The notes under the pieces are model-generated. The model was not told the origin of the DNA and ran no database searches. It was given only the letters and a program-made list of their open reading frames with translations. A stretch of DNA of 64,000 nt from Bacteroidota bacterium. Its GTDB lineage: Bacteria > Bacteroidota > Bacteroidia > NS11-12g > UBA955. Made by a program: the position numbers and the translations under genes. The stretch covers positions 44,816 to 108,815 of the forward strand of contig JAEUUL010000038.1 in the NCBI GenBank assembly GCA_016787485.1, in the 5' to 3' direction. Each line of letters opens with the position of its first letter. Position 1 is the first letter of the stretch. Below, one piece after another: positions 15,053 to 59,156 of the stretch.

Positions 15053-15155
15053 TGTGCAAAGGTACAATGACATAGCCCTGAAAGGCCTGATTTTTAAGCA
15101 GGAATTGCCAATGCAAATGAATTTATTGTAGGTTTGCGCCAACAAATACGGATTT

Positions 15156-21490: not shown

Positions 21491-22402
21491 TCAATCCAGA
21501 TGTATGAGTTTGTGAAATTCCTTCAATCGGGTATTCACGTCCTCCATTGTGATTCCTGCAATACGTTCAGTTCCAAACTTTTCTACACAGAAACTGGCCA
21601 GACAACTACCAAACAGTATACCTTTTTTCATGGCCTCAAAACTCGTGGATCCGGTAGATGCGATATATCCTGCAAATCCACCGGCAAAAGTATCCCCGGC
21701 ACCCGTGGGGTCAAATACATCTTCCAGAGGCAGAGCCGGACAGAAGAAAATCTGTCCTTCTCCAAAAAGCAGGGCACCATGTTCCCCCTTTTTAATAATC
21801 ACTGTAGAAGGCCCCATCGCCTGAATTATTCTGGCAGCTTTAACCAGGCTGTGCTCACCACTTAGTTGTCGGGCTTCCTCGTCATTGATGGTTAATACAT
21901 CCACCATTTTCAATACCTGCTGCAATTGAGGCAAAGCGATATCCATCCAGAAATTCATGGTATCCATCATCACAAGTTTGGGGCGGTGTTCCAATCGTTC
22001 CAGGGTTTTTATCTGTACTTCGGGTGAAAGGTTACCCAGCATAACATAATCAGGTTTGCGCAGATGTTCCGGGATCAGGGGGTCAAAGGTTCCGAGCACA
22101 TTCAATTCGGTTACCAGCGTATCCCTGCTGTTCATATCCATATGATACTTTCCATGCCAAAAGAAGGATTTTTCGCCCTGCTTTACCTGCAGACCTGAAG
22201 TATCAACCCCGCGGGATTTGAGTGTTTCAATAAATTCAAAATCAAAATCCTCACCCACTACCGCGACAAGACCCACCCTATCATATAAAAGAGATGTCGC
22301 CAAAGCGATGTATGAAGCGGCACCACCCACAATTTTTCCGGTACTGCCAAAAGGGGTATCAATCGCGTCAAACGCTACGGAACCAATAACTAAAAGACTC
22401 AT
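21491..22402 (-). CDS. PfkB-family carbohydrate kinase
   Basis: GSVAFD, GGAA, IKKGEHG, DPTGAGDTFAGG. Confidence 0.95.
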   Translation of the reverse strand: MSLLVIGSVAFDAIDTPFGSTGKIVGGAASYIALATSLLYDRVGLVAVVGEDFDFEFIETLKSRGVDTSGLQVKQGEKSFFWHGKYHMDMNSRDTLVTELNVLGTFDPLIPEHLRKPDYVMLGNLSPEVQIKTLERLEHRPKLVMMDTMNFWMDIALPQLQQVLKMVDVLTINDEEARQLSGEHSLVKAARIIQAMGPSTVIIKKGEHGALLFGEGQIFFCPALPLEDVFDPTGAGDTFAGGFAGYIASTGSTSFEAMKKGILFGSCLASFCVEKFGTERIAGITMEDVNTRLKEFHKLIHLD

Positions 22403-22499
22403 CAGATATTTTTTTGCAAAAAAACCACAAAAAACACTTGAAAAAAAATCGCATTCCGCTATTTTTGCAGTCCCATTCGGGAAACCCCGTCTGGTAAAC

Positions 22500-22573
22500 T
22501 CCTCGATAGCTCAGCTGGTTAGAGCAATTGACTGTTAATCAATAGGTCGCTGGTTCGAGCCCAGCTCGGGGAG
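22500..22573 (+). tRNA. tRNA-Asn (GTT)
   Basis: Acceptor TCCTCGA/TCGGGGA, D arm GCTCAGCTGGTTAGAGC, anticodon arm ATTGA-CTGTTAA-TCAAT, T arm GCTGG-TTCGAGC-CCAGC. Upstream TATTTTTG -7 element at 22460-22467. Confidence 0.97.
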
Positions 22574-47932: not shown

Positions 47933-48012
47933 GCAGCCTCGAAAATACCGGACTACCACAGCTTCCTGAAAATCAGTTTTACCAAAACTATCCACGGCAT
48001 ACCTTTGCCGGA

Positions 48013-48501
48013 ATGGCTGCTCCTTCCTTTCAGCTTCTGACTTCCCCCCAAAGATGGATAGCAGGTATTCCCGCCAATTTTGAAAATGTAATGCAGGCCG
48101 ATACCCGCCATTGGCAACAGTTTATGCCACGGTTGCGCGGGATAAAAAACCGGCTGGGCGGGCATCTGGTCTCAGCCAGTGTATATCAGCCATCAGAAAA
48201 CGGCCTTTTCAACCCGTTTGCCCCTGTACAAAAATGGGCTGGCGTTGAAGTGGAAACCGGGGAGGCGCTGCCTGAAGGCATGCACACGCTTCTGATTCCG
48301 GCAGGAGAGTATGCTGTATTCAGATACCAAGGGTTGCCATCGGGTGCTTCTTCTTTTTTCAAGGCTGTATTCTCAGAAAGCCTTCCCCAGGCCGGGCTAC
48401 TTATCGATAGCCGACCCCATTTCGAATTGTTACCCCCCGGCTACAGTGCCACCGATCCCAACGCAGAGGAAGAAGTGTGGGTGCCGGTGATGAGGATGTG
48501 A
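48013..48501 (+). CDS. GyrI-like small-molecule-binding protein
   Basis: KWAGVEV, IPAGEYAVF, RPHFE, EEEVWVPV. Confidence 0.85.
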   Translation: MAAPSFQLLTSPQRWIAGIPANFENVMQADTRHWQQFMPRLRGIKNRLGGHLVSASVYQPSENGLFNPFAPVQKWAGVEVETGEALPEGMHTLLIPAGEYAVFRYQGLPSGASSFFKAVFSESLPQAGLLIDSRPHFELLPPGYSATDPNAEEEVWVPVMRM

Positions 48502-48589
48502 AAAAGTGCCTTAAACACAGCGACCCCACTTGCGTGAGGCCCCTGGAGTAGTTTTCACAACGGAATAATCCTTATTGTGAATTGCTTCA
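48501..48589 (-). ncRNA. tracrRNA
   Basis: Minus strand GAAGCAATTCACAAT (48574-48588) is complementary to repeat nt 1-15. It is followed by AAGGATTATTCC (nexus-like), GTTGTGAAAAC, the GGCCTCAC-GCAA-GTGGGGTC hairpin and a U5 tail. Confidence 0.88.
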
Positions 48590-48593
48590 CTTG

Positions 48594-48624
48594 CAAAATT
48601 AGAAACTATTTACCAATTTGCAAA
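48594..48624 (-). promoter_or_regulatory. tracrRNA promoter (Bacteroidota -33/-7)
   Basis: Minus strand TTTG (48624-48621), 19-nt spacer, TAATTTTG (48601-48594). Confidence 0.75.
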
Positions 48625-48629
48625 TAATT

Positions 48630-51600
48630 ATGAAATCAAAATTAATTGTAGGTTTAGATATTGGAGTCAATTCCGTAGGATTTGCAATTATTAAAGAACC
48701 TGAAAGTGGTGAACCTCAGATTCTAAAAATGGGTGTTCGCATTGTAAATGAAGATCCCAACTTTCATTTGAAATTTTATCAGGGCAATTCCGCCAGCCGC
48801 AATGCTGACAGAAGAACCAACCGCGGAATCAGGCGCGGAACAGACAGATATCAATTGCGCAGAACCCTATTAACCGAAATATTGCAACAATACAACATGA
48901 TGCCAGATGAAGACCTGATGCTTAAAGTATCAGCGTTGGAATTATATGGATTACGGGCTAAAGCAGCGGTTGAAATGGTTACATTGCCAGAATTGGGTAG
49001 GATATTTTTTCACCTGAATCAGAAACGGGGATATAGCAGCATGCGCAAAGGATATAATCCTGAGGAATCAGATTCTGAATATCTGGCCAGGATTCAGGAA
49101 CTGCATGAGGAAGTAGAATTTCAAACGATTGGCCAATATTGCTATAAGAAACTCCAGAAGAACCCGCTATATCGTCTTAGGGAAAGCACATTTCTACGAA
49201 CTGACTACCAACGGGAATTTGATGCGATATGGAATGAGCAAAAAAAGCATTATCCATCTTTACTTACTGGTGGACCCGAAGAAAAAGATAACCGGGGTAC
49301 TTTATACCGTGCAATACGAAACGAAATCATTTATTACCAAAGACCTCTGAAAAGTGCAAAGCATTTGGTTTCCAATTGCACATTTGAACCTTACAAAAAG
49401 GTCATACCCAAATCTCATCCACTGTTTCAAAGTTTCAGAATCTGGCAAGTGATAAATAACCTGGTAGCCAAGGCATACGATGGAGAAGAAGTGCTTCCCA
49501 CTGAAATTCAGAGATTGAAGTTATTTGAAGAATTACATTTAAAGCGCAAAATCTCTGCTACAGGTATATTGAAAATCATGGGGCTAAAAAATGGAGAATA
49601 CACCCTGAATTATGAAGAAATTCCCGGAAATCTCACATGGATTAACTGTTATCTTGCACTGAAAGAGATTGGAGAAGAAACCTTAATGAGGTCCTGGTTG
49701 AGTCAGGGTGTGGAATATTCCGAGCAACATCCTTTCGTCAAATACTGGCATATCACTTATAGTCTGGAAACCGAAAAAGATGTAATTCACGCATTACAAT
49801 CCCAATTGAATTTCACTGAAACGGCCGCAGTTCAAATCGCAAAAAAAATAGGATATACCAATGATTACGGTTCATTGAGTTCTAAAGCTATCCGCAGAAT
49901 TTTGCCACACCTGTTAAAAGGCTTGACCTACGACAAGGCCGTTCTTGAAGCCAAATATGAACACCACAGCAATATATATAACGTAACCAACATTAAAGAC
50001 ATTTTACCTCCAGTATTGCCAAACACATTGAGAAATCCGGTTGTTGAACAGATTCTCAATCAGGTTGTCAATGTAGTTAATACCATTACTGACAGGTATG
50101 GCAAACCCGACGAGTTTCGGATTGAAATGGCAAGGGAGTTAAAAAGCAATGCAAAAAAAAGAAAGCGCGTATTTACTGAAAATAACAACAGAAAAAAACA
50201 AGCTGATGAAATCATCCATGATTTAAAAGAACGATATGGATTCAAAAGGGTAAATATGCGTGATGTGCAAAGATGGCGGCTATGGGAAGAAACGGACCAG
50301 ATGTGTTTGTATTGCACCAGGCATATCAAATTTGAGGATGTATACAAAGGCAATGCAGACATAGAACATATCATACCCAGAAGCCGCATATTCTCTGATG
50401 CGCATACCAACTTTATTCTTGCGCACACCTCCTGCAACCGGAACAAAGGCCAAATGACAGCTTATGATTATATGGCATCAAAGCCCAAAGAAGATTTTGA
50501 GGCCTATTTATCCAGTATAGCTAAGCTTTTCAAATTGAAAAAAATCAGCACACCCAAAAGGGACAATCTCTTAATGAAAGGTGATGAAATCCCTTCAGAC
50601 TTTCTAAACAGGCAGCTAAATGACACACAATACGTAGCAAGAGAAACCATTGCTATGCTCAAACAGGTTTGTAAAAATGTATATACAACCACAGGAAGCG
50701 TGACAGATCTGCTCAAAGAAAAATGGAATTTAAAGCATGTACTTGAAGAGGTGAATATGGAGACATACCGTGAAGCGGGACTTACCAATCCTGTGGAAGT
50801 ACTACCCGGGAAAATAGTGGAGAAAATAACCAACTGGGAAAAGCGCAAAGACCACCGCCACCATGCGCTGGATGCACTCGCCATTGCCTTAACCAAACAA
50901 TCCTATATTCAAAGACTGAATACGCTTTCAGCCAATTATCTCACCTATCAGAATTTAAAAGAATCTCCATACGATTTCCCTGCGCCCATCAAAGATATGC
51001 GCAAACTGGTGACCGAACACCTGAATGGGATTCTGGTCAGCTTTAAAAAACCCAATTCCAAATTGTTGACCAAAAAGACCAACAAAATCAAGCTGGCCAA
51101 TGGGAAAACCGCAACACAGGAAACCTGGGTACCCAGAGGCAGTTTGCACAACGACACCATAATGGGAAGAATAAAAAGATACAAAAAGACAGACTGGAAG
51201 GAGGCGTTAGAGAATCCCGGCAATTTGGTATCGGTTGAAGTAAAAACTGCATTGCTTGAATTTGTAAAATCATCCGGTGATGCCAAAAAAGCTTTGACCA
51301 CATTGAAAAAAGAAGGATTAAATGTGAATGGAGCTATCATAACTCAACCATTGATTTGGGACTATGTATTTACAAAAAGGGTAAAGTTATCTGAACAACT
51401 GACGACTGCCCAAATAACCAAAATAGCGGACACCAGAATCAAACGCCTGGTTGAGCAAAGGGTAAAAGAAGCTGGAAGTATTAAAGCCGCATTCAAAGAT
51501 TATGCAAGCAATCCGATTTATTTAAATGAGAACAAACGAATCCCGATAAAAACGGTAACCGTTGAGGATAGGAGTTCACTTGTACCTGTAAGAACTGGCT

Positions 51601-52032
51601 ACGCCGTATTGGGAAACAACCACCATGCTATTATTTATAAGGATGCGACTGGTAAGTTTACTGAAAAAATTGTTTCGTTTTGGGAGGTCGTTGAAAGTGC
51701 TTTACAAAATTGGCGAACCACAGGGAAAATTTATCCGGTGATCAATACAAATCCTGACCCGGAAAAGGGTGAAGTCTATATGACTCTTCAAATCAACGAC
51801 TTGTTTCTAATAGAATTACCTGAGGAACTAAAACACAGCCATGAGACAAATCAACTCACACCTTATATATATCGTTTGCAAAAATTGAGTGCGGGTGATT
51901 ATGTTTTCAGACATCAATACCAAACCAATTTAGAACTCGAACTCCCCTTTGCGATGAAAAGAATACAATCATTGTCGAAATTTACCACGATTCAAAAGGT
52001 GCAAATCAATGCTTTGGGTGAAATTATAAGAA

Positions 52033-52040
<8 letters not shown>
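48630..52040 (+). CDS. cas9: Type II-C CRISPR endonuclease Cas9 (~1136 aa)
   Basis: RuvC-I GLDIGVNSVG, Arg-rich bridge helix, RuvC-II IEMARE, HNH DIEHIIP...CNRNKG, QLNDTQY, RuvC-III DHRHHALDA; ATG at 48630. Confidence 0.98.
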
Positions 52041-53285
<1,245 letters not shown>

Positions 53286-53346
53286 CAGAATGCAAAAAAA
53301 GGAAGTTTCACTGCAAACTGGCCGTCACATTCCACACAATCTCAAT

Positions 53347-53391
53347 CCTAAAACAAAGGATAAAGCCCGCCCATGGCGAACTTTATCCTTT
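53347..53391 (-). terminator. Hairpin at the cas2-proximal end of the array, probable terminator of minus-strand pre-crRNA
   Basis: aaaggataaag (53355-53365) and ctttatccttt (53381-53391) form a perfect 11-bp stem; GTTTT follows on the minus strand. Confidence 0.7.
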
Positions 53392-53395
53392 TACG

Positions 53396-55937
53396 GTTGA
53401 AGCAAATTTAAGTCTGAAAGCAATTCACAACTCAGTCGTGATTACACAGCAACCGGAACTAGTTGAAGCAAATTTAAGTCTGAAAGCAATTCACAACCTA
53501 TTGCCATACATGGTTTGTACCTTACCGGTTGAAGCAAATTTAAGTCTGAAAGCAATTCACAACTTTAACAGATGTTGCAAGTGCTATGGGAACGTTGAAG
53601 CAAATTTAAGTCTGAAAGCAATTCACAACGAAAGAGTTGGAAGGATTGCGCGATACGTTGTTGAAGCAAATTTAAGTCTGAAAGCAATTCACAACAGTGC
53701 CTATAAGGTTGCTACTTCCAGTTATGTTGAAGCAAATTTAAGTCTGAAAGCAATTCACAACAAAGAAATGTTTGCCGTTATTGTATTTGAGGTTGAAGCA
53801 AATTTAAGTCTGAAAGCAATTCACAACAGCCTGCAAGTGTGGAAACTGCGGATAAACGTTGAAGCAAATTTAAGTCTGAAAGCAATTCACAACCCAGGTC
53901 CACAACGGTATCCCAGTCCAGAGGTTGAAGCAAATTTAAGTCTGAAAGCAATTCACAACGCGAACTGTACGATAAGGGAAAAGTGCTGTGTTGAAGCAAA
54001 TTTAAGTCTGAAAGCAATTCACAACGGAAAGGGAAAAAAGCCAGTGCATGCGGGAGTTGAAGCAAATTTAAGTCTGAAAGCAATTCACAACTACCCGCTG
54101 TAATTGCATCATGTGTGGCAGGTTGAAGCAAATTTAAGTCTGAAAGCAATTCACAACCGGCAGGAATAGCATAGTTGCCACCTGCGGGTTGAAGCAAATT
54201 TAAGTCTGAAAGCAATTCACAACAAATGTGGAATCGGTACTGGCGGCACTTAAGTTGAAGCAAATTTAAGTCTGAAAGCAATTCACAACTGCAAGCCCTA
54301 CAGAAGTAACTACTGTGATGTTGAAGCAAATTTAAGTCTGAAAGCAATTCACAACTAACAGGGCAAAGTATTCATCCGAAGTCATGTTGAAGCAAATTTA
54401 AGTCTGAAAGCAATTCACAACCAAAATGCCAAAGCATCTGACCAACAGATAGTTGAAGCAAATTTAAGTCTGAAAGCAATTCACAACATTGATGTAACGC
54501 ATGATGATATTGTTGCAGTTGAAGCAAATTTAAGTCTGAAAGCAATTCACAACTAGGCGAGGCATACCACTACCAGGAGTGGGGTTGAAGCAAATTTAAG
54601 TCTGAAAGCAATTCACAACCAGACGTTGCAAGAAACTTGACACCCGAATGTTGAAGCAAATTTAAGTCTGAAAGCAATTCACAACCGCATCCGGTTCATC
54701 CAGCCCACACCGTACGTTGAAGCAAATTTAAGTCTGAAAGCAATTCACAACAACGGGGTTTTGTTAATCAGCGCATTTTTCGTTGAAGCAAATTTAAGTC
54801 TGAAAGCAATTCACAACTGTACTTAATCGGTAATTTGTGCCGGGGTGTTGAAGCAAATTTAAGTCTGAAAGCAATTCACAACATAGGCAATATATATTCA
54901 TTTTCAGCGGAAGTTGAAGCAAATTTAAGTCTGAAAGCAATTCACAACATATATTGGGGATACCATACGGCAAAAAAAGTTGAAGCAAATTTAAGTCTGA
55001 AAGCAATTCACAACTTGCCATTGCCGTTAAGGAAAACCCGTTTAGTTGAAGCAAATTTAAGTCTGAAAGCAATTCACAACAGTGTACCTGTTGTACAGGT
55101 CAGCACATAGGTTGAAGCAAATTTAAGTCTGAAAGCAATTCACAACCCGCGCTTTGCATATAGCGCAAGTTTAGCCGTTGAAGCAAATTTAAGTCTGAAA
55201 GCAATTCACAACAGTTCGTGCGCCTTGCTGTTTGCGGCTTCAGTTGAAGCAAATTTAAGTCTGAAAGCAATTCACAACCTATATTCTGTATGCCGCGCAG
55301 GTATGCTGGTTGAAGCAAATTTAAGTCTGAAAGCAATTCACAACTTGGGGTTTTGGGTGGCATGCCACTGCTGGGTTGAAGCAAATTTAAGTCTGAAAGC
55401 AATTCACAACGTGTTTCCAGCGCGCTAAAACTTTCGCGGGGTTGAAGCAAATTTAAGTCTGAAAGCAATTCACAACGCGCAAAAATCACAATAACGCCAT
55501 ATAAACGTTGAAGCAAATTTAAGTCTGAAAGCAATTCACAACTGCCAGCATGTACTTCAGCACCTGGGCTATGTTGAAGCAAATTTAAGTCTGAAAGCAA
55601 TTCACAACGCAGTAGGTCTGCATCTGTGGCGCGGTTGTGTTGAAGCAAATTTAAGTCTGAAAGCAATTCACAACAAGGAAATGTTTGCCGTTATTGCATT
55701 TGAGGTTGAAGCAAATTTAAGTCTGAAAGCAATTCACAACTATATGAAGATGTTGGGGTATTGGTTAAAAGTTGAAGCAAATTTAAGTCTGAAAGCAATT
55801 CACAACGTTTGAATTCTTGGCAAATGACAAAAATGGTTGAAGCAAATTTAAGTCTGAAAGCAATTCACAACGTGGGAAACCGTCTGGGCTGATTCTGTGG
55901 CGTTGAAGCAAATTTAAGTCTGAAAGCAATTCACATT
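53396..55937 (-). CRISPR. Type II-C CRISPR array, 39 x 36-nt repeats, 38 spacers
   Basis: Plus-strand repeat GTTGAAGCAAATTTAAGTCTGAAAGCAATTCACAAC; spacers 30 nt (two of 29 nt); last repeat 55902-55937 ends ...CACATT. crRNA strand assigned as minus from tracrRNA complementarity. Confidence 0.99.
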
Positions 55938-55993
55938 AAGTCTGCGAATTGAACAGCATTTAAAGCGTATACTTCTTTTGAAAAAACAAGAAC

Positions 55994-57565
55994 TCACATC
56001 TTCTGAACCGGTACCACCTGCCTGTATTGCAGATCCTGATATACCAGCAGGTATTTGCCCGCCGGAATATGCGCCAGAGACATTTCCAGACGGTGGCTGC
56101 CTGCAGGCATTTGGGTGTCAACCAGTGTTTCCACCATCCGTCCGGCATAATCCATCAGAGAAATCTGCACCCTTTGGCCACTGCTGATGTATTGCAAGAC
56201 CGCACTATCGGTAAACGGATTGGGATTGCAACTGAGCAGCAGCCTGCCTTTGCCGGCCAGACTCCGCACTGCGTTTCCGTTGCATCCCTGTGCAATCAGT
56301 GGCAGGTAATTGAATTTTTTGAGCAATATGTTTTCCACCTGGGTATCATTCAGGCAAAACCAGTCGTTGAGCAGGGTGGCATAAATCTGTCTGAAGTCGT
56401 ACTGCATGGGCAGGTTATCGTCCACCTTTACCGTTGTGGGGATGGTGGGGTTTACTCCGGTCATTTTGCCCCCATTCACAGCGTTACCAAAGATGAAGAC
56501 AGGGGCTGCGGCACCATGGTCAGTTCCCATACTGTCATTGCTGCGGATTCTGCGGCCAAACTCGCTGAGGGTAGCACCCACCACACGGTCTGCAATGCCC
56601 AGAAATTCACAATCGGCCTGAAACGCCACGATGGCATCGTTCAGGGTTTTCATCAGGTTGGCATGGATGCCTTTGGTGGGATCTGTTTTGTCCGATTGTG
56701 AACTGTGTGTATCAAATCCGCCAATGCTCACCATATACACCCTGGTTTGCAAACCACCTGCCACAAGGCGGGCCACCGTTTTCAGCTGATTGGCAAGGTC
56801 GGTATCCGGATAGGGTTTCTGCGATGTGACTTTAGCAGCCGCATTCTTTATGGTTTTGCTGTAAGCACTGGTTTGCTCGGCTATGGTGCGCACATAGGTC
56901 AGTTGTTCGCCGGCATGGGTAGAAGGTGCCGTATCCGGAATCCCGATGGTGCTGTTGAATACATTGTTCGGATCGGTGATAGCCATACCCAGATTGGTGG
57001 CCGGGCCCTGAAACATGAGGGTGAGCAGACTGCCCACCTGTATGCCAAGCGGGTCAGGATTGGCGGTGCTGGGGTAACCCACCGGAAAACCGGGGTATTC
57101 CATGTTCAGGTAGCGGCCTGCCATGCCCGATGCCACGTACTGGTCGCTGTCGCTGGCGCTGAACCATATATCCTGACTGCGGAAATGCGAATAATTCTGA
57201 TTGGGGTACCCTACAGACTGCACGATATGCAATTTGCCGTTGTTGTACATCTGCTGCAACCCCTGCAGGGATGGATGCAGTCCGGTTGCAGTTGTCCCGT
57301 TCAATCCCAATACTTTGTTGGATGGAATCAGTATATTGCTTCGTGCAGTGGACAAATTGCTGTATTGGTCCAGCGGGATGACGGTATTCAATCCGTCGTT
57401 TCCTCCTGCAAGGTCTATCAACACCAACACATGGTCGGTTTGTGTAGCCATTGCTGCCAGTCTGGACAGCAACGAATCGGGCCGCATGGCTGCCAGGGCA
57501 TTGTTATTCACAGTTACCGGAAGCAGGGCAGCACCGGTGGTTTTTAAAAATGTGCTTCTTTTCAT
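55994..57565 (-). CDS. DUF1501 family protein with Tat-like signal and T9SS C-terminal domain
   Basis: MKRSTFLK, L.GGNDGLN, SHFRS, GGFDTH, SEFGRR, GTDHG, DFRQIYA, C-terminal NPNPF...PAGKYL. Confidence 0.9.
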   Translation of the reverse strand: MKRSTFLKTTGAALLPVTVNNNALAAMRPDSLLSRLAAMATQTDHVLVLIDLAGGNDGLNTVIPLDQYSNLSTARSNILIPSNKVLGLNGTTATGLHPSLQGLQQMYNNGKLHIVQSVGYPNQNYSHFRSQDIWFSASDSDQYVASGMAGRYLNMEYPGFPVGYPSTANPDPLGIQVGSLLTLMFQGPATNLGMAITDPNNVFNSTIGIPDTAPSTHAGEQLTYVRTIAEQTSAYSKTIKNAAAKVTSQKPYPDTDLANQLKTVARLVAGGLQTRVYMVSIGGFDTHSSQSDKTDPTKGIHANLMKTLNDAIVAFQADCEFLGIADRVVGATLSEFGRRIRSNDSMGTDHGAAAPVFIFGNAVNGGKMTGVNPTIPTTVKVDDNLPMQYDFRQIYATLLNDWFCLNDTQVENILLKKFNYLPLIAQGCNGNAVRSLAGKGRLLLSCNPNPFTDSAVLQYISSGQRVQISLMDYAGRMVETLVDTQMPAGSHRLEMSLAHIPAGKYLLVYQDLQYRQVVPVQKM

Positions 57566-57575
57566 GTTCCGGCTC

Positions 57576-59156
57576 TTAGAAAATCTGATAATGGGGGGAT
57601 TGGGTAAGGTACACATACAGATTTTGCAGGCGCGTACTCACCACTTGTTTTTTCGTAGTATCTCCGGGGTTGTTGATATAGTCATTCCACGCATCCGACC
57701 AGTAACTGTCTGAGCTTTGTCCGCTGAGTAATATTTGTTTTTTAATAAGAAAAACGGTGGTACTCAGAATGTCAATCAAATACATGTCACCCAGCAAATC
57801 GGACAGAAACTGATTGGGGTCTGCCACATTGCTGAACTGCGCTGCTGCTTTTACCGGATCGAAGGAATTGTTGTACCCGCCATACAGCATATAATTGGTA
57901 TAATTGATGCGTTTGGGAAGGGTATCGCTGTTGATCCAGATCTGATAATACTGAGGCCCCTGATAAAAAGCAGGCCATCCCGCCACATTTGGCGGATCTC
58001 CCAGAGCCTGGGCCTGAATATAGGCGGTATAATACAGGTCAAGATAAAACCTGTAGACTGTTTCCAACGGAGCCGATGGCGGGGTTATGCTGTTTTCGCG
58101 GGCAAATCCAACCACCAGATCCAACGGTGTTTTTATTTGTGCACCCACTACAGACGCATCATAAAAATGCTCGCTTTTGAGCAATTTATCCAGTACCGGT
58201 TTGAGATTGTAACTATTGTTTCTGTAGATTGTGGCAAGCGGTTCAATGATATTTGTCTCTACCGTTGCATCAATTTCATGGTATACAAAATAGCGATAGA
58301 TTTTGCGGCAAATAAATTTCGCACATTCATCGGTGGCCAGTATCATATCCACCAGTTCATCCAGCTCTCCTGCACCTGCTGAGCCTGATTTTCCGGTGAT
58401 CACCTTATTTCCGTAAAATGCACTGAACGTTTTGTCTCCGGTGTCGTGCAGGGTGTCGAAAAATTTATAGGTTTGTGCATTCCAGTCCAAACTGTGACCG
58501 GTAAGAATACGGGCAGCTTCCTTCACATCATTTTCGGTATACTGGCTTCCACTGCCCTTTCCCACCCCAAAAAGCTCCTGCAATTCCCTTCCGTAATTTT
58601 CATCGGGCGAAAATTTGGTATTCAGGTAGCCGTTGAGATAATGCAGCATCTGCGGATTTTTGCTCACTTCTATCATGAGTGTACGCAGGGGTGAAAAAGT
58701 GTGGGTGCGGAACAATTCGATCAAACGGTAGGCCGCAGTGGCCCCGCCCCCTGCTTTCAATTCTGTTACAAAATGATCACTCCAGAACACCATCATCTTT
58801 TCCTGAATGCTTCGGCCCTGATTCACCAGATTCGAAATCCACCAGGCTTTCAGTGATTCACCACGAAAGAAATTGGTGGTTCCATCCCCATAGGTTCCGT
58901 TTACCCAGGTGCTGCCTTTGGGCACATTGTCGGCATCTTTCATGGGCGTGCCGCTGTTGTCCAGACCTTCGTAATAGTTGAGTGGTGGCGCGGGGGCAGA
59001 ACCGGGCAATGTAAGCAACTCATCTACAGACTGGGTAATCGTTTTACCCAGGAAATACTCTACGTCTGCAGGTTTTGCACCGTACAGGGTTCTTTTGAGC
59101 AAATGCACCACCTGTCTTCGTCCCCAGGTACCGGTATATGGATTTAATCCTGACAT
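57576..59156 (-). CDS. DUF1800 family protein
   Basis: HLLKRT.YG, EKM..FWSDHF, P.ML.YL, DENYGRELQELF, PPNVAGW; canonical DUF1501 partner. Confidence 0.9.
   Translation of the reverse strand: MSGLNPYTGTWGRRQVVHLLKRTLYGAKPADVEYFLGKTITQSVDELLTLPGSAPAPPLNYYEGLDNSGTPMKDADNVPKGSTWVNGTYGDGTTNFFRGESLKAWWISNLVNQGRSIQEKMMVFWSDHFVTELKAGGGATAAYRLIELFRTHTFSPLRTLMIEVSKNPQMLHYLNGYLNTKFSPDENYGRELQELFGVGKGSGSQYTENDVKEAARILTGHSLDWNAQTYKFFDTLHDTGDKTFSAFYGNKVITGKSGSAGAGELDELVDMILATDECAKFICRKIYRYFVYHEIDATVETNIIEPLATIYRNNSYNLKPVLDKLLKSEHFYDASVVGAQIKTPLDLVVGFARENSITPPSAPLETVYRFYLDLYYTAYIQAQALGDPPNVAGWPAFYQGPQYYQIWINSDTLPKRINYTNYMLYGGYNNSFDPVKAAAQFSNVADPNQFLSDLLGDMYLIDILSTTVFLIKKQILLSGQSSDSYWSDAWNDYINNPGDTTKKQVVSTRLQNLYVYLTQSPHYQIF

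Follow-up and report, generated by a model that had tools for sequence, protein, structure and literature searches.

A Bacteroidota -7 promoter box inside every repeat of a type II-C CRISPR array: candidate start sites for individual crRNAs

The window analyzed here, a stretch of 64,000 nucleotides (nt) from a Bacteroidota bacterium (assembly GCA_016787485.1 of 3.41 Mb, contig JAEUUL010000038.1, positions 44,816 to 108,815), contains a complete type II-C locus of the CRISPR-Cas9 system, consisting of the gene for a trans-activating CRISPR RNA (tracrRNA), cas9, cas1, cas2 and then the array. These three are the only cas genes (48630-53285), without csn2 or cas4; a GyrI-like gene is located upstream of cas9 and the array directly downstream of cas2. 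Our subject is the repeat of this array, which in every copy carries a match to TAnnTTTG, the -7 promoter element of the Bacteroidota, in the sense of the CRISPR RNA (crRNA). The features of the array are the following:

53396..55937, minus strand (crRNA sense, read towards cas2): type II-C CRISPR array in which 39 repeats of 36 nt enclose 38 spacers
53403..53410, minus strand: -7 box TAAATTTG of the last, cas2-proximal repeat (repeat nt 22-29)
55902..55937, minus strand: first ('extra', cas2-distal) repeat, nt 1-2 changed from GT to AA, nt 3-36 intact
55909..55916, minus strand: -7 box TAAATTTG of the first, degenerate repeat (repeat nt 22-29)
55904, minus strand: predicted +1 of the first unit (A34), from the spacing of leaderless genes described below
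55938..55957, minus strand: putative relic of a partial older repeat, which abuts the first repeat and resembles repeat nt 1-22 (CAGACTT exact)

The spacers have a length of 30 nt (36 of 38) or 29 nt (2 of 38), and the minus-strand repeat GTTGTGAATTGCTTTCAGACTTAAATTTGCTTCAAC is identical in 38 of the 39 copies. In all 39 we could show that TAAATTTG is an exact match to TAnnTTTG at repeat nt 22-29 in crRNA sense, so that with nt 1 at coordinate e the box spans e-21 to e-28. A first-pass annotation of this DNA had described exactly this box in every repeat, and it had also described a 5'-most repeat which lost its first two bases and keeps the box; both are borne out. The distance of about 56 nt that it gave between the array and the stop of the neighboring DUF1501 gene is 56 nt for the open reading frame (ORF) at 55994-57616. 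The run CAGACTTAA from 55938-55957 extends into the altered first two bases of the first repeat, and it looks as if an older repeat had been fused by a deletion to nt 3-36 of the first repeat.

The promoter consensus of the Bacteroidota housekeeping sigma factor consists of TAnnTTTG at -7 and TTTG at -33 (as quoted in PMC7366714), and this genome clearly uses TAnnTTTG as its -7 promoter element: among 1937 long ORFs, 221 have a sense box and 8 an antisense box that starts 20-11 nt ahead of the first ATG. We also measured the gap between the G of the box and the A of the first ATG in 2301 long ORFs, of which 156 have a gap of 4-7 nt (4 nt in 52 genes, 5 in 32, 6 in 33 and 7 in 39), with a floor below this range, as a gap of 3 nt occurs in 7 genes and a shorter one in 3. 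These short gaps are read by us as many leaderless mRNAs having their +1 at the A of the ATG; leaderless-looking genes of the window are for example those at 48000 on the plus strand and at 15064 on the minus strand. With this spacing the +1 would be located 5-8 nt past the G of the box, and in every unit of the array it is therefore predicted at e-33 to e-36, which is A34, A35, C36 or the first nucleotide of the spacer. The base 3' of the repeat box is a C, the same as in 54% of 409 promoter sites, and the segment +8 to +12 has a promoter-like score (0.97, the promoter median being 0.94). The first-pass annotation had noted the same motif in front of the tracrRNA gene and other genes, and indeed we found TAATTTTG at the tracrRNA gene and boxes before the GyrI-like ORF at 48000 and a tRNA at 22460. 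A scan for sigma-70 promoters yielded 3 sites vs 5.6 expected, and none of them is carried by the repeats.

The direction of the array follows from the tracrRNA gene, for which two features were assigned:

48594..48601, minus strand: -7 box TAATTTTG, which precedes the anti-repeat of the tracrRNA gene by 4-6 nt
48501..48589, minus strand: tracrRNA candidate with predicted ends, consisting of the anti-repeat GAAGCAATTCACAAT, hairpins and a terminator-like end (GGCAC followed by U5)

The candidate folds at -33.6 kcal/mol (z -3.2), and the flank-context score of its box (9.2) exceeds the 90th percentile of the promoter set from this genome. Its anti-repeat is complementary to repeat nt 1-15 (about 15 pairs including G-U), with a perfect 13-nt match to crRNA nt 2-14 (blastn-short). 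In the loci that we fetched for comparison the best anti-repeat match, just upstream of cas9, typically spans crRNA nt 2-25 (the GTTGTG end) and in the window nt 2-14, so that the box is located outside of the tracrRNA duplex and directly behind it. Because the tracrRNA gene sits on the minus strand, the crRNA strand is the minus strand as well, and the array is read towards cas2. In Riemerella anatipestifer, which also has a type II-C system and belongs to the Bacteroidota, new spacers enter at the cas2 end (excerpts of PMC6008519). The array of the window is accordingly read from its old, degenerate end to its presumed growing end, and a leader on the cas2 side cannot be its promoter.

The first-pass annotation had proposed to look for TAnnTTTG in type II-C repeats across the Bacteroidota. 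For such a survey we fetched 160 loci together with Cas9 alignments, 80 from named genomes and 80 from metagenomes. Arrays were present in 99 of 161 sources and gave 104 arrays; after dropping four with a consensus shorter than 34 nt, 92 distinct repeats remained, all oriented by their tracrRNA-pairing end. An exact TAnnTTTG is present in 45 of the 92 in crRNA sense and in one in antisense, and in 1000 rounds of shuffling the 92 repeats a box was carried by 4.5 of them on average and by at most 11. As a shuffled repeat carries the box in about 5% of cases, the single box of the window's repeat is only mildly unlikely, and it is this comparative enrichment that makes the box more than chance. 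The exact sense box was found in 28 of 46 repeats from named Bacteroidota genomes and in 16 of 45 from metagenomes, and with one mismatch allowed the counts were 75 in sense vs 38 in antisense (of 93, before the final orientation). The genomes that contributed box-bearing repeats carry the labels Bacteroidales, Chitinophagales, Sphingobacteriales and Flavobacteriales.

The motif emerges also when it is not searched for, as the commonest pattern of the form XXnnXXXX on the 3' side of nt 16 is TAnnTTTG (45 repeats) and the runner-up (31) is a shifted overlap of it. When the repeats of 45-48 nt are aligned, conservation is seen at TA and TTTG, and the middle pair and the next ca. 12 nt are nearly free; nine different values of the middle pair occur in the survey. 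The start of the box ranges from nt 22 to nt 32 and its end from 5 to 17 nt before the spacer. In the commoner form with 46-47 nt this distance is mostly 14-17 nt, most often 16 (24 repeats), and five repeats of 35-36 nt keep the box 5-7 nt from their end though they are about 11 nt short of the 47-nt form. The claim of the first-pass annotation that the +1 is close to nt 34, just before the spacer, thus agrees with the spacing floor of 4 nt as far as 36-nt repeats are concerned and does not extend to the repeats with 46-47 nt. Among the consensus repeats are some (L042, L053, L135 and L067) in which the usual site is decayed and a new box is found elsewhere. Repeats with the box at nt 24 (most of the 47-nt repeats; L002 and L153 are examples) have the TTG of GTTGTG 22 nt before the T of the box. 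This spacing is that of the genome's weak -33 TTG peak, and the start of these repeats could therefore double as a -33 element. Altogether, the survey shows that the box is a conserved and strand-specific feature of Bacteroidota type II-C repeats. In 14 control genomes of other phyla no Cas9 was found.

Several short repeats end differently. L145, L154, L078 and L080 as well as the Flavobacterium-type L076, L144, L146, L148, L150, L151 and L157 are without TAnnTTTG and finish in sigma-70-like -10 shapes (…TGCTACAAT, …TAGTTACAAT, …GTATAAAAT, …TTATAAATT) or in …ACGATATT. Since L078 is a Pontibacter genome, not every Bacteroidota array uses the -7 box.

The first repeats of the arrays provide a second line of evidence. 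A promoter within the repeat would make the 3' half of the first repeat the sole promoter of the oldest spacer, and a pure pre-crRNA model leaves this half without a function. Among 45 box-bearing arrays having their old end on the contig, 26 first repeats are degenerate. Their tracrRNA-pairing 5' part is mismatched at 178 of 605 positions, compared to 7 of 156 at the six box positions, 6 of 52 in the middle pair and 30 of 396 in the 3' remainder, and the box is intact in 22 of the 26. Internal variant repeats (13 of 809) lend weak support, with mismatches at 0 of 78 box positions and at 24 of 533 elsewhere. Mutations of the first repeat in type II-C arrays have been described to lie mostly within the first 15 nt, and it has been argued that the extra repeat must stay a promoter (Feussner et al. 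2025, excerpts of PMC12080349).

The remaining genes and features of the locus are:

48630..52040, plus strand: cas9, 1136 amino acids counted from the ATG
52033..52941, plus strand: cas1 (PF01867, E 8.7e-29)
52884..53285, plus strand: cas2 as the listed ORF (PF09827, E 1.9e-18)
53355..53391: hairpin of 17 bp that separates cas2 from the array and has U-rich tails on either strand
55994..57616, minus strand (the crRNA strand): DUF1501 gene, with its stop 56 nt upstream of the array

Cas9 matches RuvC_III, HNH_4 and HNH of Pfam over the cut-off and Cas9_a under it (20.6 bits vs a cut-off of 26.9), and its full-length homologues annotated as Cas9 are from Chitinophagaceae, Bacteroidales, Chryseobacterium and other Bacteroidota. 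Two collection scans gave a best Cas9 relative of 43% identity, and a search within the same order gave one of 52%. The true start of cas2 is probably later than listed, as the Pfam match starts only at residue 33. The hairpin behind cas2 folds at -28.6 kcal/mol on the minus strand (z -4.9) and at -22.1 kcal/mol on the plus strand (z -5.5) and appears terminator-like for the cas operon and for array transcripts alike. A finder for terminators past the last repeat on the crRNA strand, applied to 93 arrays, returned 15 of 49 box-bearing and 18 of 44 other arrays, but it is crude and missed the main hairpin of the window. Ribonuclease III (RNase III) is encoded in the genome. The Rfam scan of the window at the gathering threshold returned tRNA only. 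The DUF1501 gene forms a pair with a DUF1800 gene (55994-59156, minus strand), and the C-terminus of the DUF1501 protein shows a weak match, below the cut-off, to a type IX secretion sorting domain.

Two spacers of the array on the minus strand, 55675-55704 near the old end and 53762-53791 near the new end, differ at 2 of 30 positions, which suggests repeated acquisition from variants of one target. No protospacer was found when the whole array was compared with a phage collection, and a 19-nt spacer core had no exact match in viral contigs. In contigs of four DNA runs covering 52800-56300 the array is collapsed or fragmentary, and one contig joins 53395 to 55902. A second CRISPR-like array is located outside the window (contig C8, ca. 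21980-22565) with 9 repeats of ca. 36 nt and spacers of ca. 36 nt, and its repeats show no TAnnTTTG on either strand.

From these data we consider it probable, if well short of certain, that each 36-nt repeat doubles as the promoter for the next spacer and that the crRNAs arise from start sites of their own. That the box fires inside the array, and at which base exactly, we infer from the sequence. The Bacteroidota housekeeping sigma factor would recognize TAAATTTG at repeat nt 22-29 and RNA polymerase would start 5-8 nt past its G, at A34, A35, C36 or the first base of the spacer. The primary transcript would then consist of 0-3 repeat bases, the whole 30-nt spacer and the next repeat, whose first ca. 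15 nt would pair with the tracrRNA to form the duplex bound by Cas9. The 3' end of the crRNA might be set by RNase III or by trimming, and run-on transcripts would end at the hairpin beside cas2. In the oldest repeat, loss of the first two tracrRNA-pairing bases should disable a spacer-less 'extraneous' crRNA, and this repeat would retain the promoter part needed by the oldest spacer. A wider claim, towards which we lean rather less than we lean away from it, is that throughout the phylum selection maintains the -7 box as a module of Bacteroidota Cas9 arrays, the unusually long 46-48-nt repeats being composed of a tracrRNA-pairing half and a promoter half and the 36-nt forms being trimmed versions that kept both.

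A number of results weigh against repeat-internal promoters. The box is no rarity, with 2197 copies in the genome (0.32 per kb per strand vs about 0.30 per kb expected from base frequencies), 1221 of them inside ORFs, and hence the box alone is not sufficient as the sign of a promoter. A flank-context score, which separates promoter from genic copies with an area under the curve (AUC) of 0.87, gives the repeat units an intermediate position: with a median of -0.74 they rank at the 15th percentile among promoters and at the 76th among genic copies, and the repeat-encoded part alone at the 17th and 80th, respectively. Such an intermediate score is partly expected, since nt 1-15 of the repeat are needed for pairing with the tracrRNA. 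In this genome, TTG at -33 forms a weak peak 22-23 nt before the T of the box, and the GTTG of the window's repeat puts its TTG at 20 nt, a distance that is not enriched. Among the surveyed repeats 47 of 92 are without an exact box, including all 8 Flavobacterium-type repeats with 36-37 nt. It is also absent from L174 of the same order, whose Cas9 (52% identity) is the closest one that comes with an array; for the arrays of the same order the exact box was counted in 2 of 7 and the one-mismatch version in 3 of 7. The surveyed repeats are moreover related by descent, so the 45 boxes are not 45 independent events, and clustering at a ratio of 0.80 resulted in 17 clusters with a sense box in 4. 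Finally, in the 56 nt that separate the first repeat from the end of DUF1501 no stable structure or hairpin (z +0.8) and no terminator-like site was found. As the DUF1501 gene is on the same strand, it can read into the array, and internal promoters are not strictly needed.

This last point leads to a different explanation, in which the array is mainly transcribed as one long pre-crRNA, by read-through from DUF1800-DUF1501 or from a start in the 56-nt gap, and is then cut by tracrRNA, Cas9 and RNase III, the boxes being silent or minor. The orientation of both DUF genes on the crRNA strand, the lack of a terminator-like site before the array, the presence of RNase III and the mostly genic location of box copies together with the intermediate flank context of the repeats all fit to it, and with RNase III present, a long transcript that is processed has to be taken seriously, as an alternative or in addition. 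It leaves unexplained why the box is the best-conserved island of a repeat half that is neither translated nor paired, and why decayed first repeats lose their tracrRNA-pairing half and yet keep the 3' half. As the main route we therefore regard it as rather unlikely, and in any case read-through and internal starts are compatible with each other. The first-pass annotation had proposed that this lineage reached the repeat-promoter solution with its own sigma consensus, and while the conserved and strand-specific box speaks for this, the possible read-through from DUF1501 had been overlooked.

The box might also be conserved for a role other than transcription, as a ruler or recognition site for integration by Cas1-Cas2 or as the site of another DNA-binding protein, with the match to the promoter being incidental. 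Repeat-internal motifs guide integration in other CRISPR types, and most of the 46-47-nt repeats start the box at nt 23-26, which is fairly fixed from the 5' end. However, conservation falls exactly on TA and TTTG and leaves the middle pair free, the pattern of a sigma factor, and a box that shifts between nt 22 and 32 and between 5 and 17 nt from the 3' end makes a poor ruler. It is moreover strand-specific, and first repeats keep it, even though in Riemerella integration makes no use of the first repeat (excerpts of PMC6008519). This explanation appears improbable to us. Far less credible still is a plus-strand reading of the array, in the direction away from cas2, which would put the box on the wrong strand. 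Classical leader logic indeed places a leader beside cas2, and direction predictors have called such arrays in this way (excerpts of PMC4911918). But the box and the terminator-like end of the anti-repeat gene are on the minus strand, the GTTGTG end, to which the anti-repeat pairs, has to come after the spacer, and a strong hairpin separates cas2 from the array. In addition, the type II-C array of the relative Bacteroides fragilis 638R was seen to be transcribed facing the cas genes in eight metatranscriptomes (excerpts of PMC4911918).

Promoters within repeats are known from other type II-C systems. The repeats of Campylobacter jejuni end in an extended -10-like box, and primary 5' ends are found at spacer position 5 (Dugar et al. 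2013, excerpts of PMC3656092). As described there, C. jejuni shares with the window the minimal set of cas9, cas1 and cas2 and a promoter element in the 3' part of the repeat serving the next spacer, and the 3' end is set by tracrRNA and RNase III, as is proposed here. It differs in that its sigma-70 element is located at the very end of the repeat and the guide is shortened, whereas the -7 box is located at nt 22-29 and a full 30-nt spacer is predicted here; its promoters were shown by differential RNA sequencing, northern blots and primer extension, and ours are deduced from sequence. For Neisseria meningitidis repeat-embedded promoters, crRNAs with a 5' triphosphate and an array read towards the cas genes have been described (excerpts of PMC5965381). 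The orientation is the same as in the window and a promoter element would likewise be carried by the repeats, but in N. meningitidis it is of the sigma-70 type, the starts are inside the spacers and RNase III is dispensable according to the same excerpts, in contrast to a -7 box with a +1 predicted before the spacer.

Within the Bacteroidota, a TTG that precedes the spacer by about 33-35 bp has been put forward as a putative -33 element in the type II-C arrays of Flavobacterium columnare and F. psychrophilum (excerpts of PMC8092290 and PMC10309648), for F. columnare backed by 8 mapped reads. These proposals concern the same phylum and the same transcription within the array towards its variable end, but Flavobacterium-type repeats carry no TAnnTTTG (8 of 8 in our survey), unlike the repeat of the window. 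In Riemerella no promoters were found in the 47-nt repeats (PMC5006608). Feussner et al., in the excerpts of PMC12080349, treat repeat promoters as a general property of type II-C systems and describe first repeats mutated in their first bases, as is the case in the window's array; in these excerpts the promoter element is not identified and neither Bacteroidota nor Flavobacteria are named (0 occurrences), whereas the -7 box is put forward here. In the full-text literature searched, with most subscription journals and supplements outside of it, no report of TAnnTTTG inside Cas9 repeats was found. The best available reading, given the genome's own promoter grammar and the strand-specific, motif-shaped conservation across the phylum, is that the strategy known from Neisseria and Campylobacter may be written here in the language of another sigma factor, with the +1 before and not inside the spacer.

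If the boxes fire, repeat promoters of type II-C arrays would be a general design that was rewritten for a very different sigma factor, and the strategy would be no quirk of two proteobacterial lineages. A function would be found for the 3' half of the long Bacteroidota repeats, which is poorly understood. If the box is moreover the phylum-wide module considered above, the crRNAs of the phylum would be primary transcripts having a repeat-derived 5' tag of 0-12 nt. As the transcript of every unit would then continue towards cas2, the newest spacers would get the summed output of all upstream promoters, resulting in an expression gradient that favors recent memories without any leader promoter. 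If the boxes fire, it would also become clear why earlier attempts to find promoters in Riemerella and Flavobacterium arrays, which relied on predictors trained on sigma-70, failed. For the expression of Bacteroidota Cas9 arrays and the engineering of gut Bacteroides, the origin of the crRNA 5' end would then be known.

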